Shown here piece by piece: positions 3,814 to 28,544 of a stretch of DNA of 32,000 nt. The stretch spans positions 930,001 to 962,000 of the forward strand of contig NC_013202.1 of assembly GCF_000023965.1 (NCBI RefSeq), read 5' to 3'. Below the pieces are notes generated by a model. That model worked only from the letters and a program-made list of their open reading frames with translations, did not search any database and was not told where the DNA came from. Every line of letters begins with the position of its first letter. Positions within the stretch are counted from its first letter, which is position 1. The stretch is from Halomicrobium mukohataei DSM 12286 (GTDB lineage: Archaea; Halobacteriota; Halobacteria; Halobacteriales; Haloarculaceae). The position numbers were made by a program, and so were the translations under genes.

Positions 3814-4038
3814 TCAGGTGGGGAGTGCGAAGACGAATCCGAGCAACACGAGCGGAACGGCGAACACCAGCGAGTACCAGACGCCGCCGACTGCCAGCAA
3901 CAGCCACGTCGACGCCCCGTAGCCGGTGGGATCCCAGTCCAGTCCCGCTCGTGGGAGCCCGAGCGCGGCGACGGCCGGGAGGCCGACGGCGTAGCCGATC
4001 GTTCCGACGACCGCGACGTCGATCAGGCTGTTGCTCAT
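3814..4038 (-). CDS. small membrane protein (2-3 TM)
   Basis: 74-codon ORF, hydrophobic, with G/C-rich third positions. Its only possible start codon lies inside the terminus of the family-2 repeat (CAT of CTCATACTGCC). Confidence 0.55.
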   Translation of the reverse strand: MSNSLIDVAVVGTIGYAVGLPAVAALGLPRAGLDWDPTGYGASTWLLLAVGGVWYSLVFAVPLVLLGFVFALPT

Positions 4039-4119
4039 ACTGCCGGCTGTAACTTCGTGAAGATCTTCGCCACCCCGGGGTGGCGAAATCGTTCACAGAT
4101 TTACAGCCGGTAGTATCAG
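4034..4119. repeat. family-2 palindromic repeat, full copy (a)
   Basis: CTCATACTGCCGGCTGTAA ... TTACAGCCGGTAGTATCAG flank an internal palindrome centred on TTCGCCACCCC|GGGGTGGCGAA. Confidence 0.8.
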
Positions 4120-6415: not shown

Positions 6416-7000
6416 ATGTACGGTGTGAGTGATCGACATCCGAGCCACGGTCGCGGTCCCGCGCGTCCTCCCGAATCTCGGTCGCCGGTCCCCGGCTCGC
6501 GCGTGGTCTGGCGGGCGGTCGCCCTCTTGCTCGCCGCGTTCGTCCTCGTGAGCGTGTTCGGACAGATCGCCCCGATCAGCTACGTCAACAGCGGGAGCAT
6601 GGCTCCGGCGCTGTCGACCGGTGACGGGTTCGTCGCGGTGCCGGCGGCCGTCGCCGACGATCCCGATCCCGGCGACGTGATCGTCTACCGCTCCCAGGAG
6701 ATCGAGGCCGGCGGACTGGTCACCCACCGGATCGTCGGCCGGACCGACGGGGGGTTCGTGACGAAAGGCGACGCGAACCCCGTCACCGACCAGCAGGCCG
6801 GCGAACCGCCGGTTTCGCGCGATCGCATCGTCGCGCAGGTGTTCGCGGTCGACGGGCGCGTGGTCTCGCTGTCGGGTCTCGGGACCGTCTCGATGACGAT
6901 TCGCAGCGCCGTCCGGACGAGTCCCGTCGGCCTCCCGCCAGCGTCGATGGAGCTGCTGGTGCTTGCCGCGGGTGCGGTGTTGTTCTGGCGCGGGCGGTGA
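6416..7000 (+). CDS. signal peptidase I (S26 family, archaeal Sec11 type)
   Basis: An N-terminal TM helix is followed by the catalytic-serine motif NSGSMAPAL, then VTHRIV and GDANP motifs. Confidence 0.85.
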   Translation: MYGVSDRHPSHGRGPARPPESRSPVPGSRVVWRAVALLLAAFVLVSVFGQIAPISYVNSGSMAPALSTGDGFVAVPAAVADDPDPGDVIVYRSQEIEAGGLVTHRIVGRTDGGFVTKGDANPVTDQQAGEPPVSRDRIVAQVFAVDGRVVSLSGLGTVSMTIRSAVRTSPVGLPPASMELLVLAAGAVLFWRGR

Positions 7001-7084
7001 TATAGTAACGATTGAAACGATTTACACACCGATCGCACTGCCGTCGCGCGATCGGGTGTGCATTAATTTTCAATGGCTACTACA
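7001..7084. mobile_element. family-1 MITE-like palindromic element, copy 1
   Basis: 84 bp including the flanking dinucleotides TA and CA. 76 of 80 core positions are identical to copy 2. It starts directly after the signal peptidase stop codon. Confidence 0.85.
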
Positions 7085-7164
7085 CTGTCGGCTGTACGTC
7101 TGTACAGAATTTCGCGATTCCGTGCTCGCGAATCTCCCGAAACAGTTACAGCCGGCAGTATGAG
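7083..7164. repeat. family-2 palindromic repeat, copy (b), left terminus interrupted by the family-1 element
   Basis: (TGA TA)CTGTCGGCTGTACGTCTG ... TTACAGCCGGCAGTATGAG, with an internal TTCGCGA/TCGCGAA stem. Lies between convergent genes. Confidence 0.75.
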
Positions 7165-11248: not shown

Positions 11249-12088
11249 ATGAACGAGTCGATCGAGTCGAACATCACGACGCTGTCGGTCGACGGCGACG
11301 ACGTCACCGTCCGATATCTCACTGCCGGTGACGGACCGCCACTGCTCTTCTTGCACGGGATCGGACTCGACGCGGCGGCGGTGTCCGGCCGGTACGCGCT
11401 GCCCGCACTGGCCGAGGAGTACACCGTCTACGCGCTCGATTTCCCGGGCCACGGCGAGAGCGAGAAGCCCCGCCGAACGTATACGACGGACTACTACGTA
11501 GACACACTGTCGGCGTTCGTCGACGAACTCGGTCTCGCCGGCGCGAGCGTCGTCGGCGTGTCGATGGGTGGTGCGGTCGCGCTCGGCCACGCGCTCGACG
11601 GCGGTCGCCCCGAGCGGCTGGTGCTCGTCGACAGCTACGGCCTCGGTGCCGACGCGTACTGGCGGACCGGTGCCAGTCTCGCCCTCCGGATCCCGTTCGC
11701 GGACAGCCTGCTCTGGGGGAGCATGGGAACGCGCGCGGCGGTCCGGACCAGCCTCCGGACGATGTCCGGGGCGACCCTGCCGGACGAACTGGTCGACGAC
11801 GTGTACGAGACGATCTCACCGGCGACCATGCGGACGCTCCGGAGCTGGCAGCGCCACGAGTTCCAGGCCGACGGTCTCCGGACCGACTACACGGAACGGC
11901 TCTCGGAGCTCGACGTTCCGACGCTGCTCGTCCACGGCTCGGCGGACCCGCTGCTCCCGGTATCGTGGTCGCAACGAGCGAGTGAGCTGTTACCAGACGG
12001 GCAGTTCCTGGCGGCGGAGGGCTGTGGGCACTGGCCACACAGGGAACACCCAGAGCGGTTCAATCGAGCGGTAACGGCGTTTCTCTAG
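11249..12088 (+). CDS. alpha/beta-fold hydrolase
   Basis: LLFLHGIG, nucleophile elbow GVSMGG, and the C-terminal His in GCGHWPHREHP. Confidence 0.8.
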   Translation: MNESIESNITTLSVDGDDVTVRYLTAGDGPPLLFLHGIGLDAAAVSGRYALPALAEEYTVYALDFPGHGESEKPRRTYTTDYYVDTLSAFVDELGLAGASVVGVSMGGAVALGHALDGGRPERLVLVDSYGLGADAYWRTGASLALRIPFADSLLWGSMGTRAAVRTSLRTMSGATLPDELVDDVYETISPATMRTLRSWQRHEFQADGLRTDYTERLSELDVPTLLVHGSADPLLPVSWSQRASELLPDGQFLAAEGCGHWPHREHPERFNRAVTAFL

Positions 12089-12702
12089 CTCTCGTCGGGC
12101 ATCTCGTCGATGAGGACGACGGCCTCGCCGTCGATGACCACGTCGCCGTCGTCGACGACGCGGGTCGTCAGGCGGTACTGGTCGTCGCCCAGATCCTCGA
12201 CGATCTCGATTTCGGCCGTCAGACGGTCGTCGATGCGGACCGGGTTGTGAAACTCCAGATCCTGCGAGAGATAGATCGTCAGCCCCGGCAGCCGCGCGAG
12301 GGCGGCGCTGATGAGTCCGCCGACGAGCGTGCCGTGCGCGATCCGGCCGCGGAATCGGGTCTGCTCGGCGAAGTCGTCGTCGAGGTGGAGGGGGTTCGTG
12401 TCGCCGCTGGCGGCCGCGAACTGCTTGACGTCGTTGTCGGAGATCCGCTTCGTGAACTCGACGCGATCACCGACCCCGAGCCGGTCGGGGTTGTCGGCGC
12501 TCAGTTCGACGTGCCACTCGGGGAGGTCCTCGTCGGCCTCGATGCGTTCTGCCGGGAGCGGCTTGCCGTCCCCGTCGTCGTCCGGTCGGACGCCGAACGC
12601 CGCGAACGCTGCCCGATTGGCCGCCACCACGCTGTTGAACATGTGTGAGGACGTTTCTGTCCACGTGTCCAACAGCGGGTTGTCGTGAGATTCAGAACTC
12701 AT
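12085..12702 (-). CDS. maoC: MaoC-like (R)-specific enoyl-CoA hydratase (PhaJ-like), hot-dog fold
   Basis: Hydratase motif SGDTNPLHLDDDFA...GRIAHG. The ATG at 12702 sits about 29 nt behind a TATA-like box. Divergent from the pha operon. Confidence 0.8.
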   Translation of the reverse strand: MSSESHDNPLLDTWTETSSHMFNSVVAANRAAFAAFGVRPDDDGDGKPLPAERIEADEDLPEWHVELSADNPDRLGVGDRVEFTKRISDNDVKQFAAASGDTNPLHLDDDFAEQTRFRGRIAHGTLVGGLISAALARLPGLTIYLSQDLEFHNPVRIDDRLTAEIEIVEDLGDDQYRLTTRVVDDGDVVIDGEAVVLIDEMPDES

Positions 12703-12726
12703 TGCTGGAAGAGCATTGGTTCCTCC

Positions 12727-12736
12727 GATATTAAAG
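12727..12736 (-). promoter_or_regulatory. TATA-box candidate for maoC
   Basis: CTTTAATATC on the minus strand, about 29 nt upstream of the ATG at 12702. Confidence 0.35.
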
Positions 12737-12876
12737 GGTGGTGGTAGTCGCTGTTCGTCGTTCAGACGGCTCCTACCGCTCGACAACGGCGCATTTCCGC
12801 CCGCGAACCTCCGTCTCGTTGCCAGGTCGGTTGCCGTCTGATGACATCTGATGGTAGTCAGTGGTGATGAACGGAA

Positions 12877-18014: not shown

Positions 18015-18648
18015 TCACAGCTCCTTGACGACCGTCGCCGGATTGCCGGCCACGACCACGTCCGAGGGCACGTCGTCGGTGACGACGGCTCCGGCGGCCA
18101 CGACCGCGCGGTCCCCGACGGTCACTCCCGGCGTCAGGACGGCCCGGCCGCCGATCCAGACGTGATCGCCGCCGGTCACGGGATCACCCATCTCCAGTCC
18201 GGCAGCACGTTCCTCGGCGTCCAGCGGGTGCGTCGCCGTGTAGGCGTGGACCCCGGGACCGAGCAGACAGTGCTCGCCGAACGTGATCTCACACACGTCC
18301 AGGAAGACGCAGTCGACGTTCGCGTAGAAATCGTCGCCGACGTGGACGTTGAAGCCGTAGTCACAGCCCAGCGGTGGCTCGACCGTCGCCTCCCCGACCG
18401 TCCCGAACAGTTCGTCGAGTAGTTCCCGACGGCGTTCCCGTGGGTCGGGCGGCGTCTCGTTGTACGCACTGGTCAGTTCGTCGGCTCGGCTGCGCCCCGC
18501 GACTATAGTAACAATTGAAACGATTTACACACCGATCGCAGTGCCGTCGTGCGATCGGGTGTGCATTGATTTTCAATGGCTACTATAGCTCCGGACCGCT
18601 GGGATCGTAGGCGTTCCCAGCGAGCATCTTCTCTAACTCCGACGGCAT
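18015..18648 (-). pseudogene. maa: maltose/galactoside O-acetyltransferase (hexapeptide-repeat, LbH family) disrupted by a MITE insertion
   Basis: The N-terminal 21 codons (MPSELEKMLAGNAYDPSGPEL) end at a TAG supplied by the element. The remaining 162 codons continue below 18504 in another frame. Removing 82 bp joins both parts into 183 codons collinear with Maa/LacA-type enzymes. Confidence 0.85.
18504..18587. mobile_element. family-1 MITE-like palindromic element, copy 2 (inside the acetyltransferase gene)
   Basis: TA-TAGTAACAATTGAAACG...TTTTCAATGGCTACTA-TA. Imperfect terminal inverted repeats, a second inner stem, and TA on both flanks. Confidence 0.9.
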
Positions 18649-18908: not shown

Positions 18909-18939
18909 TCATACTGCCGGCAGCGTCAGTCTGCCGGCT
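18909..18939. repeat. degenerate family-2 repeat terminus, copy (d)
   Basis: TCATACTGCCGGCAG CGTCAGT CTGCCGGCT spans the tatCt stop codon (18926-18928). Only the terminal motif is recognisable. Confidence 0.35.
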
Positions 18940-23972: not shown

Positions 23973-24063
23973 ATCCTGTCCGAGGTGACGCCGGTGCTAA
24001 ATGATTGGCGTTTTAATCTCGCATTTCTCTTGTAGGAAATATAAATGGCCCGGCGGAGCCGCC

Positions 24064-24933
24064 TCACTCTCCGGTCGGGTACTCAGTCGAGAACACGTCT
24101 TCGACGACAGCGTCGTCCTCGGGGTCGTCGTCGGGGCTCACGCTCCCGGTCTGGTAGCCGTGGAGATCCAGCGTCACGTGGTCGAAACCGAGATCAGCGA
24201 CGTGGTCGCGGGCGGCCCGGACGAAGTCGGGATCCAGCGCCACGTCGAGTTCGTCTTCGCCGACCTCGATGCGAGCGAGCCCGTCGTGGTCACGCACGCG
24301 GAACTGCTCGAAGCCCCACGTTCGCAGGAGCTGCTCGGCCTTCTCGACGCGAGAGAGCCGGTCCTCGGTCACTTCCAGTCCCGTGGGGATCCGGGAGGAG
24401 AGACAGGCCATCGAGGGCTTGTCGGCAACGGACAGGTCGTACTCGCGAGCGATCTCGCGGACCTCCTCTTTGGTGATGTCGTGTTCCAGCAGCGGCGAGT
24501 AGGCGTTCAACTCCTCGACGGCCCGGAGGCCGGGACGGTGCCCCTCGCCGGGGTCCGAGGCGTTGGTGCCGTCACAGACCACGTCGATGCCCAGCCGGCG
24601 GGCCTCGTCGTACATCGCCGAGAGGCGCATCGAACGGCAGTGATAACACCGTTCGTCGTCGTTGGCGACGAACGCCTCGCTGTCGAGTTCGCTGAACTCG
24701 ACGATCTCGTGGCGGATGCCGATCTCGTCGGCGACGCGGTTGGCGTCGACAAGCTCGGCTTCGGGGAGCGTCTCGCTCTTTGCGGTACAGGCGACGGCGT
24801 CGTCGCCCAGCGCGTCGTGGGCGAGTGCGGCGACGACGCTGGAGTCGACGCCACCCGAGAAGGCGATCAAGACGCCCTCTCGGTCGGCCAGATCGGCCCG
24901 TGCGGCGTCGAGCTTGGTCTCGACGGCAGTCAT
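24064..24933 (-). CDS. larE: PP-loop ATP pyrophosphatase, LarE-like sulfur transferase family
   Basis: PP-loop SGGVDSS, RCYHCR, DGTNASD, and PSMACLSSR with the conserved Cys. The ATG at 24933 is preferred. Confidence 0.8.
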   Translation of the reverse strand: MTAVETKLDAARADLADREGVLIAFSGGVDSSVVAALAHDALGDDAVACTAKSETLPEAELVDANRVADEIGIRHEIVEFSELDSEAFVANDDERCYHCRSMRLSAMYDEARRLGIDVVCDGTNASDPGEGHRPGLRAVEELNAYSPLLEHDITKEEVREIAREYDLSVADKPSMACLSSRIPTGLEVTEDRLSRVEKAEQLLRTWGFEQFRVRDHDGLARIEVGEDELDVALDPDFVRAARDHVADLGFDHVTLDLHGYQTGSVSPDDDPEDDAVVEDVFSTEYPTGE

Positions 24934-27875: not shown

Positions 27876-27988
27876 CACTTTCACCGCGGTCCGCGCGCCA
27901 CTTAACGATTCCCCAGGGTGGCGAAACTGTAACTGCGGCGCTCCTCCCGTGATATTCGGGGAGTCGGCAGCAACCCTTCTCTGTGATC

Positions 27989-28072
27989 TATAGTAACAAT
28001 TGAAACGATCTACATACTGATCGCACTGCTGTCGTGCGATCGAGTGTGTACTGAATTTCAATGGCTACTATA
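27989..28072. mobile_element. family-1 MITE-like palindromic element, copy 3 (upstream of orc1)
   Basis: 84 bp with TA flanks. 71 of 80 core positions are identical to copy 2, and the same two-stem hairpin is kept. Confidence 0.85.
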
Positions 28073-28157
28073 GTGGTTTCAAGACCAATTACCACGCATT
28101 TTTATGCCGTGTCTGTCCTACTATCATGGACAGGCGGCTAGAGCCCGTCAAACATAG

Positions 28158-28445
28158 ATGATTGTCTCCGCTCTCACGACCCTGACATTCCTGCTGGGCT
28201 GTGTAGCCCTCGTTGCGATCATCTGGTACTTCACCAGCTATATCCTGAATCGAGAGGACGATTCGTTAGAGGGCATTGGGATCATGCTTCTGGTGCTCGC
28301 ATATTCGCTCACCAATCAGGCGTATCAGCAGGTTGTGACTGTCGACGACACAACTATGGGCGTGCTTGATTTCGTCGGTGTCGCGTGTCTCGTCGTCGGC
28401 GTCGGTGTTCTCGTGCGACTGCGCTGGCGTCGGTCGTCCGCGTGA
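28158..28445 (+). CDS. small membrane protein, hypothetical (atypical codon usage)
   Basis: 95-codon ORF with 3 hydrophobic segments. Many A/T-ending codons, and about 56% G+C by hand count, which is visibly below the neighbouring genes. Coding status is uncertain. Confidence 0.4.
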   Translation: MIVSALTTLTFLLGCVALVAIIWYFTSYILNREDDSLEGIGIMLLVLAYSLTNQAYQQVVTVDDTTMGVLDFVGVACLVVGVGVLVRLRWRRSSA

Positions 28446-28544
28446 CCAGCCAGCACGTCTTTGCCCTGCACTGTATCGAGCGATACTACTGGAACACTTA
28501 CCCAACAACCACACCGATCATTGGTGGCTCACCCTCGCACCGCG

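Follow-up and report, generated by a model that had tools for sequence, protein, structure and literature searches.

Introduction

RUP of Streptococcus pneumoniae (IS630-Spn1) and ERIC/MITEEc1 are short non-coding elements with terminal inverted repeats (TIRs) and a duplicated TA dinucleotide, which occur in many copies, mostly between genes, are able to form long hairpins and are sometimes nested in other repeats. Duplication of TA is the hallmark of the Tc1/mariner/IS630 group. Among archaeal transposable elements of the miniature inverted-repeat kind (MITEs), SM1 of Sulfolobus is about 80 bp long and shows TA-type insertion, tens of copies per genome and an autonomous partner in the same genomes. 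It was reportedly attributed by Redder, She and Garrett in 2001 to the IS630-family element ISC1048. Here we report on an 84-bp repeat, consisting of an 80-bp core and its flanking dinucleotides, that is found three times in a 32,000-nucleotide stretch of Halomicrobium mukohataei DSM 12286 (NC_013202.1, positions 930,001 to 962,000; hereafter the window, in whose own numbering coordinates are given). Our analysis supports the view that this repeat is a MITE, a non-coding mobile element that occurs across salt-loving archaea, and we refer to it below as the 80-bp family.

The 80-bp family is like RUP and ERIC/MITEEc1 in its TIRs, TA duplication, copy number, hairpin folding and nesting, but it has no sequence similarity to them and its hosts are archaeal (Halobacteria). 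Furthermore, no cognate IS630-family element was identified for the 80-bp family in the 1.6 Mb that we examined. SM1 is similar in size, TA insertion and archaeal host, and differs in phylum, sequence and the possession of a recognised partner. The Correia elements (CREE/NEMIS) of Neisseria also duplicate TA. They come close to the 80-bp family in being TA-flanked, without a known transposase, present in more than 100 copies and associated with strain-dependent gene disruption and hairpin transcripts; however, they measure 100-200 bp and come with documented promoters, sites for integration host factor (IHF) and sites cleaved by RNase III. The Correia elements are treated in a 2024 review (PMC10969869), which places archaeal MITEs only in Sulfolobus, Halobacterium, Haloquadratum, Desulfurococcus and “several other” genomes. 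A survey of the same year, in which MITEEc1_IS630 is named, lists MITE-rich Haloarculaceae and Halovenus genomes without naming the families (PMC11602168).

The closest haloarchaeal description is that of the small mobile repeats (SMRs) of Haloquadratum walsbyi, which measure about 80-110 bp, whose inverted ends do not match those of any transposon and which are reported to make no target duplication (Dyall-Smith et al. 2011, PMC3119063). SMRs have in common with the 80-bp family a haloarchaeal host, a length of about 80 bp, inverted ends, the lack of an identified partner and insertion into small elements. By description the two differ in that one SMR class targets IS605/PATE palindromes and in that the 80-bp family does duplicate its target, contrary to the way SMRs are defined. 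A search of the literature, the supplements of large MITE and insertion sequence (IS) surveys not being covered, gave no named haloarchaeal MITE matching the 80-bp family, which appears to be an unnamed family of a well-known kind of element.

Results and discussion

Structure of the element

A first-pass annotation, made from the letters of the window alone, had described three copies of a hairpin-forming, TA-flanked repeat, and their positions were confirmed. All three are given on the plus strand: copy 1 at 7001-7084 (core 7003-7082), copy 2 at 18504-18587 (core 18506-18585) and copy 3 at 27989-28072 (core 27991-28070). Copies 2 and 3 are flanked by TA on both sides (18504-18505 and 18586-18587 for copy 2, with C and G directly outside; C-TA ... 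TA-G for copy 3), while copy 1 retains TA on the left (7001-7002) and has a right TA that has decayed to CA (7083-7084). Alignment showed four differences between copies 1 and 2 and nine in 80 positions between copies 2 and 3, as had been counted, copy 3 being the most divergent of the three; similarity among the copies stops abruptly at the TA dinucleotides. The TIRs TAGTAACAATTGAAA / TTTCAATGGCTACTA that had been read from the letters were likewise recovered in the copies, as was the inner stem, CACACCGATCGCA / TGCGATCGGGTGTG. Overall the 80-bp core is formed by a pair of imperfect inverted ends, plus the inner stem and a loop of 7 nt. The outermost ~17 bp of the ends are nearly invariant, with TAGTARCNATTGAAA at both ends of every copy, and a 15-nt terminal pattern gave six matches in the window where 0.02 were expected. 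The element has no coding capacity, stops lying no more than 16 nt from each end in two of three frames. Each copy was predicted to fold as one long hairpin on either strand (-32 to -42 kcal/mol, z -5.4 to -8.3), in agreement with the earlier proposal, and none of 200 shuffled sequences folded as well as the copies.

The G+C content of the window is 63-71%. Over 8 kb the window shares 97.6% identity with Halomicrobium katesii and, in the stretches compared, it is identical to CP045142.1, a Halomicrobium mukohataei-type chromosome. The statement that the window holds no transposase gene agrees with the Pfam labels of the genes on matching loci (about 3.5-29 kb of the window), among which no transposase was found; the labelled genes are housekeeping genes such as tatC, primase, polyhydroxyalkanoate (PHA) synthase, orc1, hsp20 and peroxiredoxin.

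Copy number and host range

Further copies, on which the identification as a mobile repeat had been made to depend, were abundant. A pattern search that demanded both ends, run over a collection of species-representative genomes, returned at least 126 copies in at least 120 stretches. Among the matches listed, 122 of 126 copies were of exactly one length, H. katesii alone accounted for about 43 of 120 stretches, and the other hosts were many Haloarcula species, Natronosalvus, Natronoglomus and Halovenus. BLAST searches against plasmids added 217 places on 57 haloarchaeal replicons, with hosts including Natrinema, Natronorubrum, Natrialba magadii (14-17 copies per plasmid), Haloterrigena, Halostella and Haloferax gibbonsii. 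No copy was found in GenBank phages or IMG/VR. One match in a Chloroflexia metagenome-assembled genome (L043:6360-6447) was rejected as a chance hit of the pattern, as it is a 64-nt perfect palindrome with other flanks and without TA duplication. Most copies adjoin ordinary genes at CTAG; a few, namely window copy 1, one in locus L016 and one at pB 185072, lie at the end of a second hairpin element (family 2, see below). A 1.3-kb segment with a trkA-like gene and a MITE copy just upstream was also seen to be duplicated at 99.9% identity on two H. katesii scaffolds (L005:174-1467 and L099:1494-2787).

Filled and empty sites in related genomes

It had been pointed out that presence at the same position in all relatives would indicate a conserved regulatory motif. 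For each of the three window copies there are related Halomicrobium genomes that lack it at the corresponding position, and this excludes that outcome for all three.

Copy 2 interrupts a minus-strand gene for a Mac/hexapeptide acetyltransferase within its coding sequence. Orthologous loci were found via the adjoining 58-aa ribbon-helix-helix (RHH) protein, which is identical in several Halomicrobium genomes, and in LC1Hm, HM KBTZ05 and two more genomes an intact acetyltransferase gene (183 aa) directly follows the RHH gene. The site reads GAG CTGG TGG in these four relatives versus GAG C-TA-[80 bp]-TA-G TCG in the window strain and H. katesii. The insertion adds 82 nt, codon 21 is now followed by TAG TAG and the reading frame is shifted; copy 2 has thus broken the acetyltransferase gene. 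What is left in the window is an N-terminal stump of 21 codons (18588..18648, minus strand), the start of which overlaps the RHH gene stop at 18648, and a C-terminal remainder (18015..18503, minus strand) that is out of frame with the start of the gene. The window strain still has this remainder as an open frame, and H. katesii shows an extra frameshift in it.

Copy 1 is found between a convergent peroxiredoxin gene and a 194-aa gene, whose stops are 3 nt apart in four relatives (L141-L144; GAGTGA CGC TCACC). The window has 164 nt in place of these 3 nt, made up of copy 1 and an unrelated family-2 hairpin element into whose terminal TA copy 1 has inserted. An exact-protein look-up for the peroxiredoxin gave matches in no genome type other than that of the window. 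Copy 3 is contained in a strain-specific segment of lower G+C content and about 0.6 kb (27955-28535), upstream of the main orc1/cdc6 gene; the segment also carries a 95-aa membrane-protein open reading frame (ORF). In H. katesii and LC1Hm the place of this segment, with the halocyanin gene on one side and the main orc1/cdc6 on the other, is occupied by a DUF8059 gene, and the sequences become homologous again about 75 nt upstream of orc1. Copy 3 is absent from LC1Hm and even from H. katesii, despite 97.6% identical DNA; a look-up of Orc1 homologues for this copy led to a contig without shared upstream sequence.

The cleanest filled/empty test of both duplication and target was provided by a site that is empty in the window. 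CTAG at 12085..12088 forms the overlapping stops of two convergent genes, 11249..12088 (plus strand) and 12085..12786 (minus strand). In four relatives (L152, L148, L151 and L153) this site is occupied by a MITE copy and reads ..GG C TA [80 bp] TT G AGAAAC. The abhydrolase gene beside the filled site encodes 283 aa in these relatives versus 279 aa in the window, i.e. it is four codons longer.

Target site and duplication

The TA flanks noticed in the window are a feature of the family as a whole, being present in 93-99% of 135 distinct copies. Directly outside TA the base is C on the left in 81% and G on the right in 79% of these copies; the next base out is a purine on the left in 67% and a pyrimidine on the right in 78%, and beyond it background composition is reached. 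Such a graded decay of the flank signal is the pattern that a target preference produces. At the empty sites the sequence is CTAG (12085-12088), CTGG (copy 2) and CTAC, CCAG and CCAG (plasmids), the last three coming from filled/empty pairs between two complete Halomicrobium plasmids that are about 90% identical, and insertion adds 82 nt, that is the 80-bp core and one TA. Every 4-nt remnant is CTAG or one mismatch away from it, for which the chance with a random 4-mer is 13/256.

A reading without duplication, in which the element would be 86 bp long with CTATAG ends, was considered and ruled out by re-alignment, by the exact CTAG site and by the frame test. At plasmid site 1, for instance, the empty site is CCAG in a gap-free alignment once a GAGC repeat is allowed. 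Both filled and empty sites occur among close relatives and show that the MITE is mobile; it inserts at TA and duplicates TA, and it has a strong preference for TA inside CTAG and a weaker one for RCTAGY.

CTAG scarcity and insertion at gene ends

CTAG is scarce in the window, with five occurrences (4816, 12085, 18827, 22992 and 28138) against 42.5 +/- 5.8 expected, an approximately 8-fold depletion. Two of the five, those at 12085 and 22992, are made up of the overlapping stops of a convergent gene pair. Since CTAG is scarce in these GC-rich genomes and survives largely as C-TAG stops or as overlapping convergent stops, insertions accumulate at the 3' ends of genes. The reading frame bears this out: on 43 element sides a convincing ORF enters the copy, and in 32 of these it does so in the frame NNC|TAT AGT AAC AAT TGA, into which chance alone would put one third. 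A hit on a CTAG that served as a C-TAG stop codon should give just this frame. Insertion in such a stop adds four codons (Y-S-N-N or Y-S-S-H, followed by a stop) and regenerates TAG on the far side, and an insertion outside such stops can disrupt a gene, copy 2 being an example.

Around the copies 29% of gene pairs are convergent, versus 21% in the background, and with respect to tandem flanking genes 18 copies have the same and 17 the opposite orientation. The targeting of CTAG stop codons explains both the location at 3' ends and this mild excess of convergent pairs, so that a terminator function is not needed. To our knowledge, stop-codon targeting that results from CTAG depletion is not a described feature of bacterial IS630-derived MITEs. 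The copies in the window look like fixed or decaying relics, and they act as selfish DNA that now and then affects the genes beside it.

The proposed mobilising transposase

The best explanation for these observations is, in our judgement, probably that of a non-autonomous MITE which inserts at TA in CTAG and is moved in trans by a transposase of the IS630/Tc1-mariner type. The first-pass annotation had proposed an insertion of this type, and of that proposal the TA duplication stood, whereas the family of the enzyme is something we infer only from the TA/CTAG signature. IS630 itself prefers TA in 5'-CTAG-3', according to the statement in PMC2170065 that cites Tenzen & Ohtsubo 1991. Duplication of TA together with a CTAG preference as in IS630 forms the basis of the mechanism that we propose, in which a cut-and-paste DDE transposase of the IS630/Tc1-mariner type would mobilise the MITE in trans, binding both of its ends and making a 2-bp staggered cut at TA.

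Several points weigh against this explanation. The 1.6 Mb examined, which included two complete 222-kb plasmids, yielded no autonomous element whose ends match: a regular-expression search with up to three mismatches over 1.47 Mb gave only MITE-sized end pairs, and an all-against-all megablast for IS-like repeats gave only matching orthologous regions and the one duplicated trkA-like gene. Six-frame translations of the 1.6 Mb also contained no IS630/Tc1 catalytic signature (YSPxLNPxE / DNxxxH). Some IS5-family groups make TA or 2-4 bp duplications as well, so the enzyme may be of another family. As regards the target, exact CTAG was found in only one empty site, the others being one base off, and the comparison at plasmid site 4 fits only with an adjacent 4-nt (AGAC) slippage; one-base differences are, however, unsurprising at largely neutral empty sites with an overall divergence of about 10%. 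Finally, two observations leave room for a role of the hairpin, namely the frequent compensatory changes in the inner stem (29, 22 and 8 copies at three pairs) and a 22-nt central hairpin that is common to the 80-bp family and a second MITE family with other ends and another duplication.

Two co-resident hairpin families

Two other hairpin families accompany the 80-bp family. Family 2 is a hairpin MITE of about 78 bp with the ends TACTGCCGGCTGTA...TACAGCCGGTAGTA and 3-bp TCA/TGA/TTA (TNA) duplications, often located at TGA stops, and many copies are present in Halomicrobium and Haloarcula loci. The element next to copy 1 occupies 7085..7160 on the plus strand, its first two bases being 7001-7002, and is bounded by TGA duplications at 6998-7000, which is the stop of an ORF at 6416..7000, and at 7161-7163. 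A further family-2 element is found at 4038-4115 with TCA at 4035-4037 and 4116-4118. An insertion of this family in H. katesii (L018:6290-6368) is absent at window 24062-24070, and a family-2 remnant at the tatC stop codon (18909-18928) is reduced to a collapsed 14-nt palindrome between two TGAs, a full copy being present in LC1Hm.

Family 3 is a hairpin MITE of 77 bp plus duplication with the ends TACGGAAAGTTGTAGG...CCTACAACCGTCCGTA and TCA/TGA duplications. None was found in the window; copies are present at L150:403-485 (H. katesii) and in L046, L051, L052, L100, L014, L015, L028 and L045. A family-3 copy splits the DUF8059 gene of H. katesii, which is intact in LC1Hm. Family 3 has a nearly identical 22-nt central hairpin, GACCGCAC-GCCGTC-GTGCGGTC, in common with the 80-bp family, and in three cases it lies nested within the end of the 80-bp element, each time at the same TCA (TTTCAATTG).

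Alternative mobilisers

The presence of these families bears on a first alternative, in which the MITE is moved by a transposase of the IS5 superfamily (IS427/ISL2-like or PIF/Harbinger-like), perhaps the very one that moves families 2 and 3. The clean 3-bp TCA/TGA/TTA duplications and TAC...GTA ends of these two families point to a TNA-duplicating transposase that was active in these lineages, the ISfinder family tables give duplications of 2-4 bp for some IS5 groups, and no IS630 signature was found in the 1.6 Mb examined. However, the duplication of the 80-bp family is strictly TA, its ends are unlike those of families 2 and 3 past the first TA, and its CTAG preference matches that published for IS630, as cited in PMC2170065. 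We therefore regard an IS5-type mobiliser as unlikely.

A broader proposal would treat the three hairpin families not as ordinary MITEs dependent on known insertion sequences but as a wider haloarchaeal form of the SMRs, with a selected central hairpin and a machinery that is perhaps tied to CTAG and to stop codons (TAG, TGA), sequences that these elements target systematically. The shared 22-nt hairpin, the pairing kept in the inner stem and the fact that no partner transposase was found are what suggest that selection could act on the central hairpin as a module, for instance as a binding site or as a structure that mobilisation requires. We consider this proposal quite unlikely.

In its narrower form, the same idea holds that the 80-bp element is simply an SMR as in Haloquadratum walsbyi and is moved by unconventional machinery. 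The size agrees well, HqIRS41 being 79-80 bp long with inverted ends of 17/21, and when Haloquadratum strains are compared certain SMR insertions stand in place of 4-5 nt in the other strain (PMC3119063), which is also seen at sites of the 80-bp family. Elements insert into one another in both cases, and a partner transposon is neither known for SMRs nor was one found for the 80-bp family in the 1.6 Mb. Against this, SMRs are defined as making no target duplication (PMC3119063) whereas the 80-bp family duplicates TA at CTAG, and one SMR class targets IS605-type palindromes whereas most 80-bp copies adjoin ordinary genes. Identity with the SMRs is therefore very unlikely.

Hairpin folding and covariation

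The strong predicted folding on both strands raises the question of whether the element is a functional hairpin under selection, for example one that terminates transcription, stabilises RNA, acts as a small RNA or binds a protein, in which case function and not mobility would account for its repetition. The first-pass annotation had noted that a C-to-T change in the left arm of copy 3 is matched by a G-to-A change in the right arm and that a second C-to-T change would give a G:U pair; in the predicted fold these correspond to the pair U30-A55 and to a U27-G58 wobble, respectively, so both remarks were borne out. Over 113 distinct 86-mers, double changes were found at three pairs of the inner stem, with C-G to T-A in 29, T-A to C-G in 22 and G-C to T-A in 8 copies, and these variants follow host lineages. 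The compensatory change of copy 3 is thus a host-specific subfamily marker and not evidence for RNA. From the sequences compared, the double changes may reflect selection on the hairpin, co-evolution of the ends with the DNA-binding domain of one transposase, or recombination or repair between the arms, all of which fit equally well. Four of the 113 distinct copies (L001, L004, L027 and L037) have the loop inverted relative to the arms (“flip/flop”), which lends some support to recombination across inverted arms.

Apart from its folding and its many compensatory changes, a functional hairpin would be favoured by the many copies at 3' gene ends, with their excess of convergent pairs (29% vs 21%), and by a putative, loose likeness of GAAAC-N2-TTTACA in one arm to a haloarchaeal B recognition element (BRE)/TATA promoter. 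However, the location at 3' ends is explained by the targeting of CTAG stop codons, copy 2 disrupts a gene, and copies decay, as judged from the collapsed family-2 remnant and from degenerate target-site duplications (TSDs). Rfam gave no matches at gathering thresholds over the whole window, and this result, together with the 18:17 orientation, gives no sign of a strand-specific RNA role. A conserved regulatory motif or RNA was ruled out by presence and absence at matching sites among close relatives and by the lack of orientation bias. We consider a selected functional hairpin highly improbable. With the IS630/Tc1-mariner-type explanation, the hairpin would most likely be a by-product of an element that is little more than two fused transposon ends; the double changes that mark subfamilies would arise because the two ends follow a single transposase or because the arms recombine with each other, and a selected RNA or DNA structure would not be required.

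Lastly, a REP/BIME-like extragenic palindrome (repetitive extragenic palindrome/bacterial interspersed mosaic element) spread by a REP-associated tyrosine transposase (RAYT; Y1, IS200-like) can be dismissed as exceedingly improbable: GTAG/CTAC-like motifs are present near the ends of the palindrome (TAGTAG / CTACTA) and genes for Y1 transposases and TnpB are common in these genomes (L154; TnpB on the JP60 plasmid), but the element is 80 bp long, duplicates TA, has true TIRs and can insert in genes, whereas REPs are extragenic sequences of 20-40 nt without target duplication.

A repeat of another kind was also seen to vary among these genomes. The acidic part of the tatC-fusion gene contains a 30-nt unit, TCCGAGTCGGGGGCTCCGTCTTCGTCTTCC, whose copy number varies between Halomicrobium genomes; repeats of this unit at L152:7248-7377 and L153:6488-6633 correspond to about 21372 in the window, where the window strain has a short form.

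Conclusions

To a specialist, nothing in these results will be greatly surprising, the targeting of CTAG stop codons and the two co-resident hairpin families being nice details. The analysis adds to the Halobacteria a MITE family that is spread over many genera and whose ends, duplication and target are now defined, which aids annotation: copies are at present unannotated, gene callers place gene starts inside them, and at least one pseudogene in the window is explained by a copy. The enzyme that moves the family is a concrete target for studies of haloarchaeal mobile DNA, as is the question of identity with the “enigmatic” small mobile repeats of Haloquadratum. More generally, the family illustrates a consequence of oligonucleotide avoidance, in that a transposon that seeks CTAG lands at gene ends, where it adds four codons and separates overlapping convergent genes.

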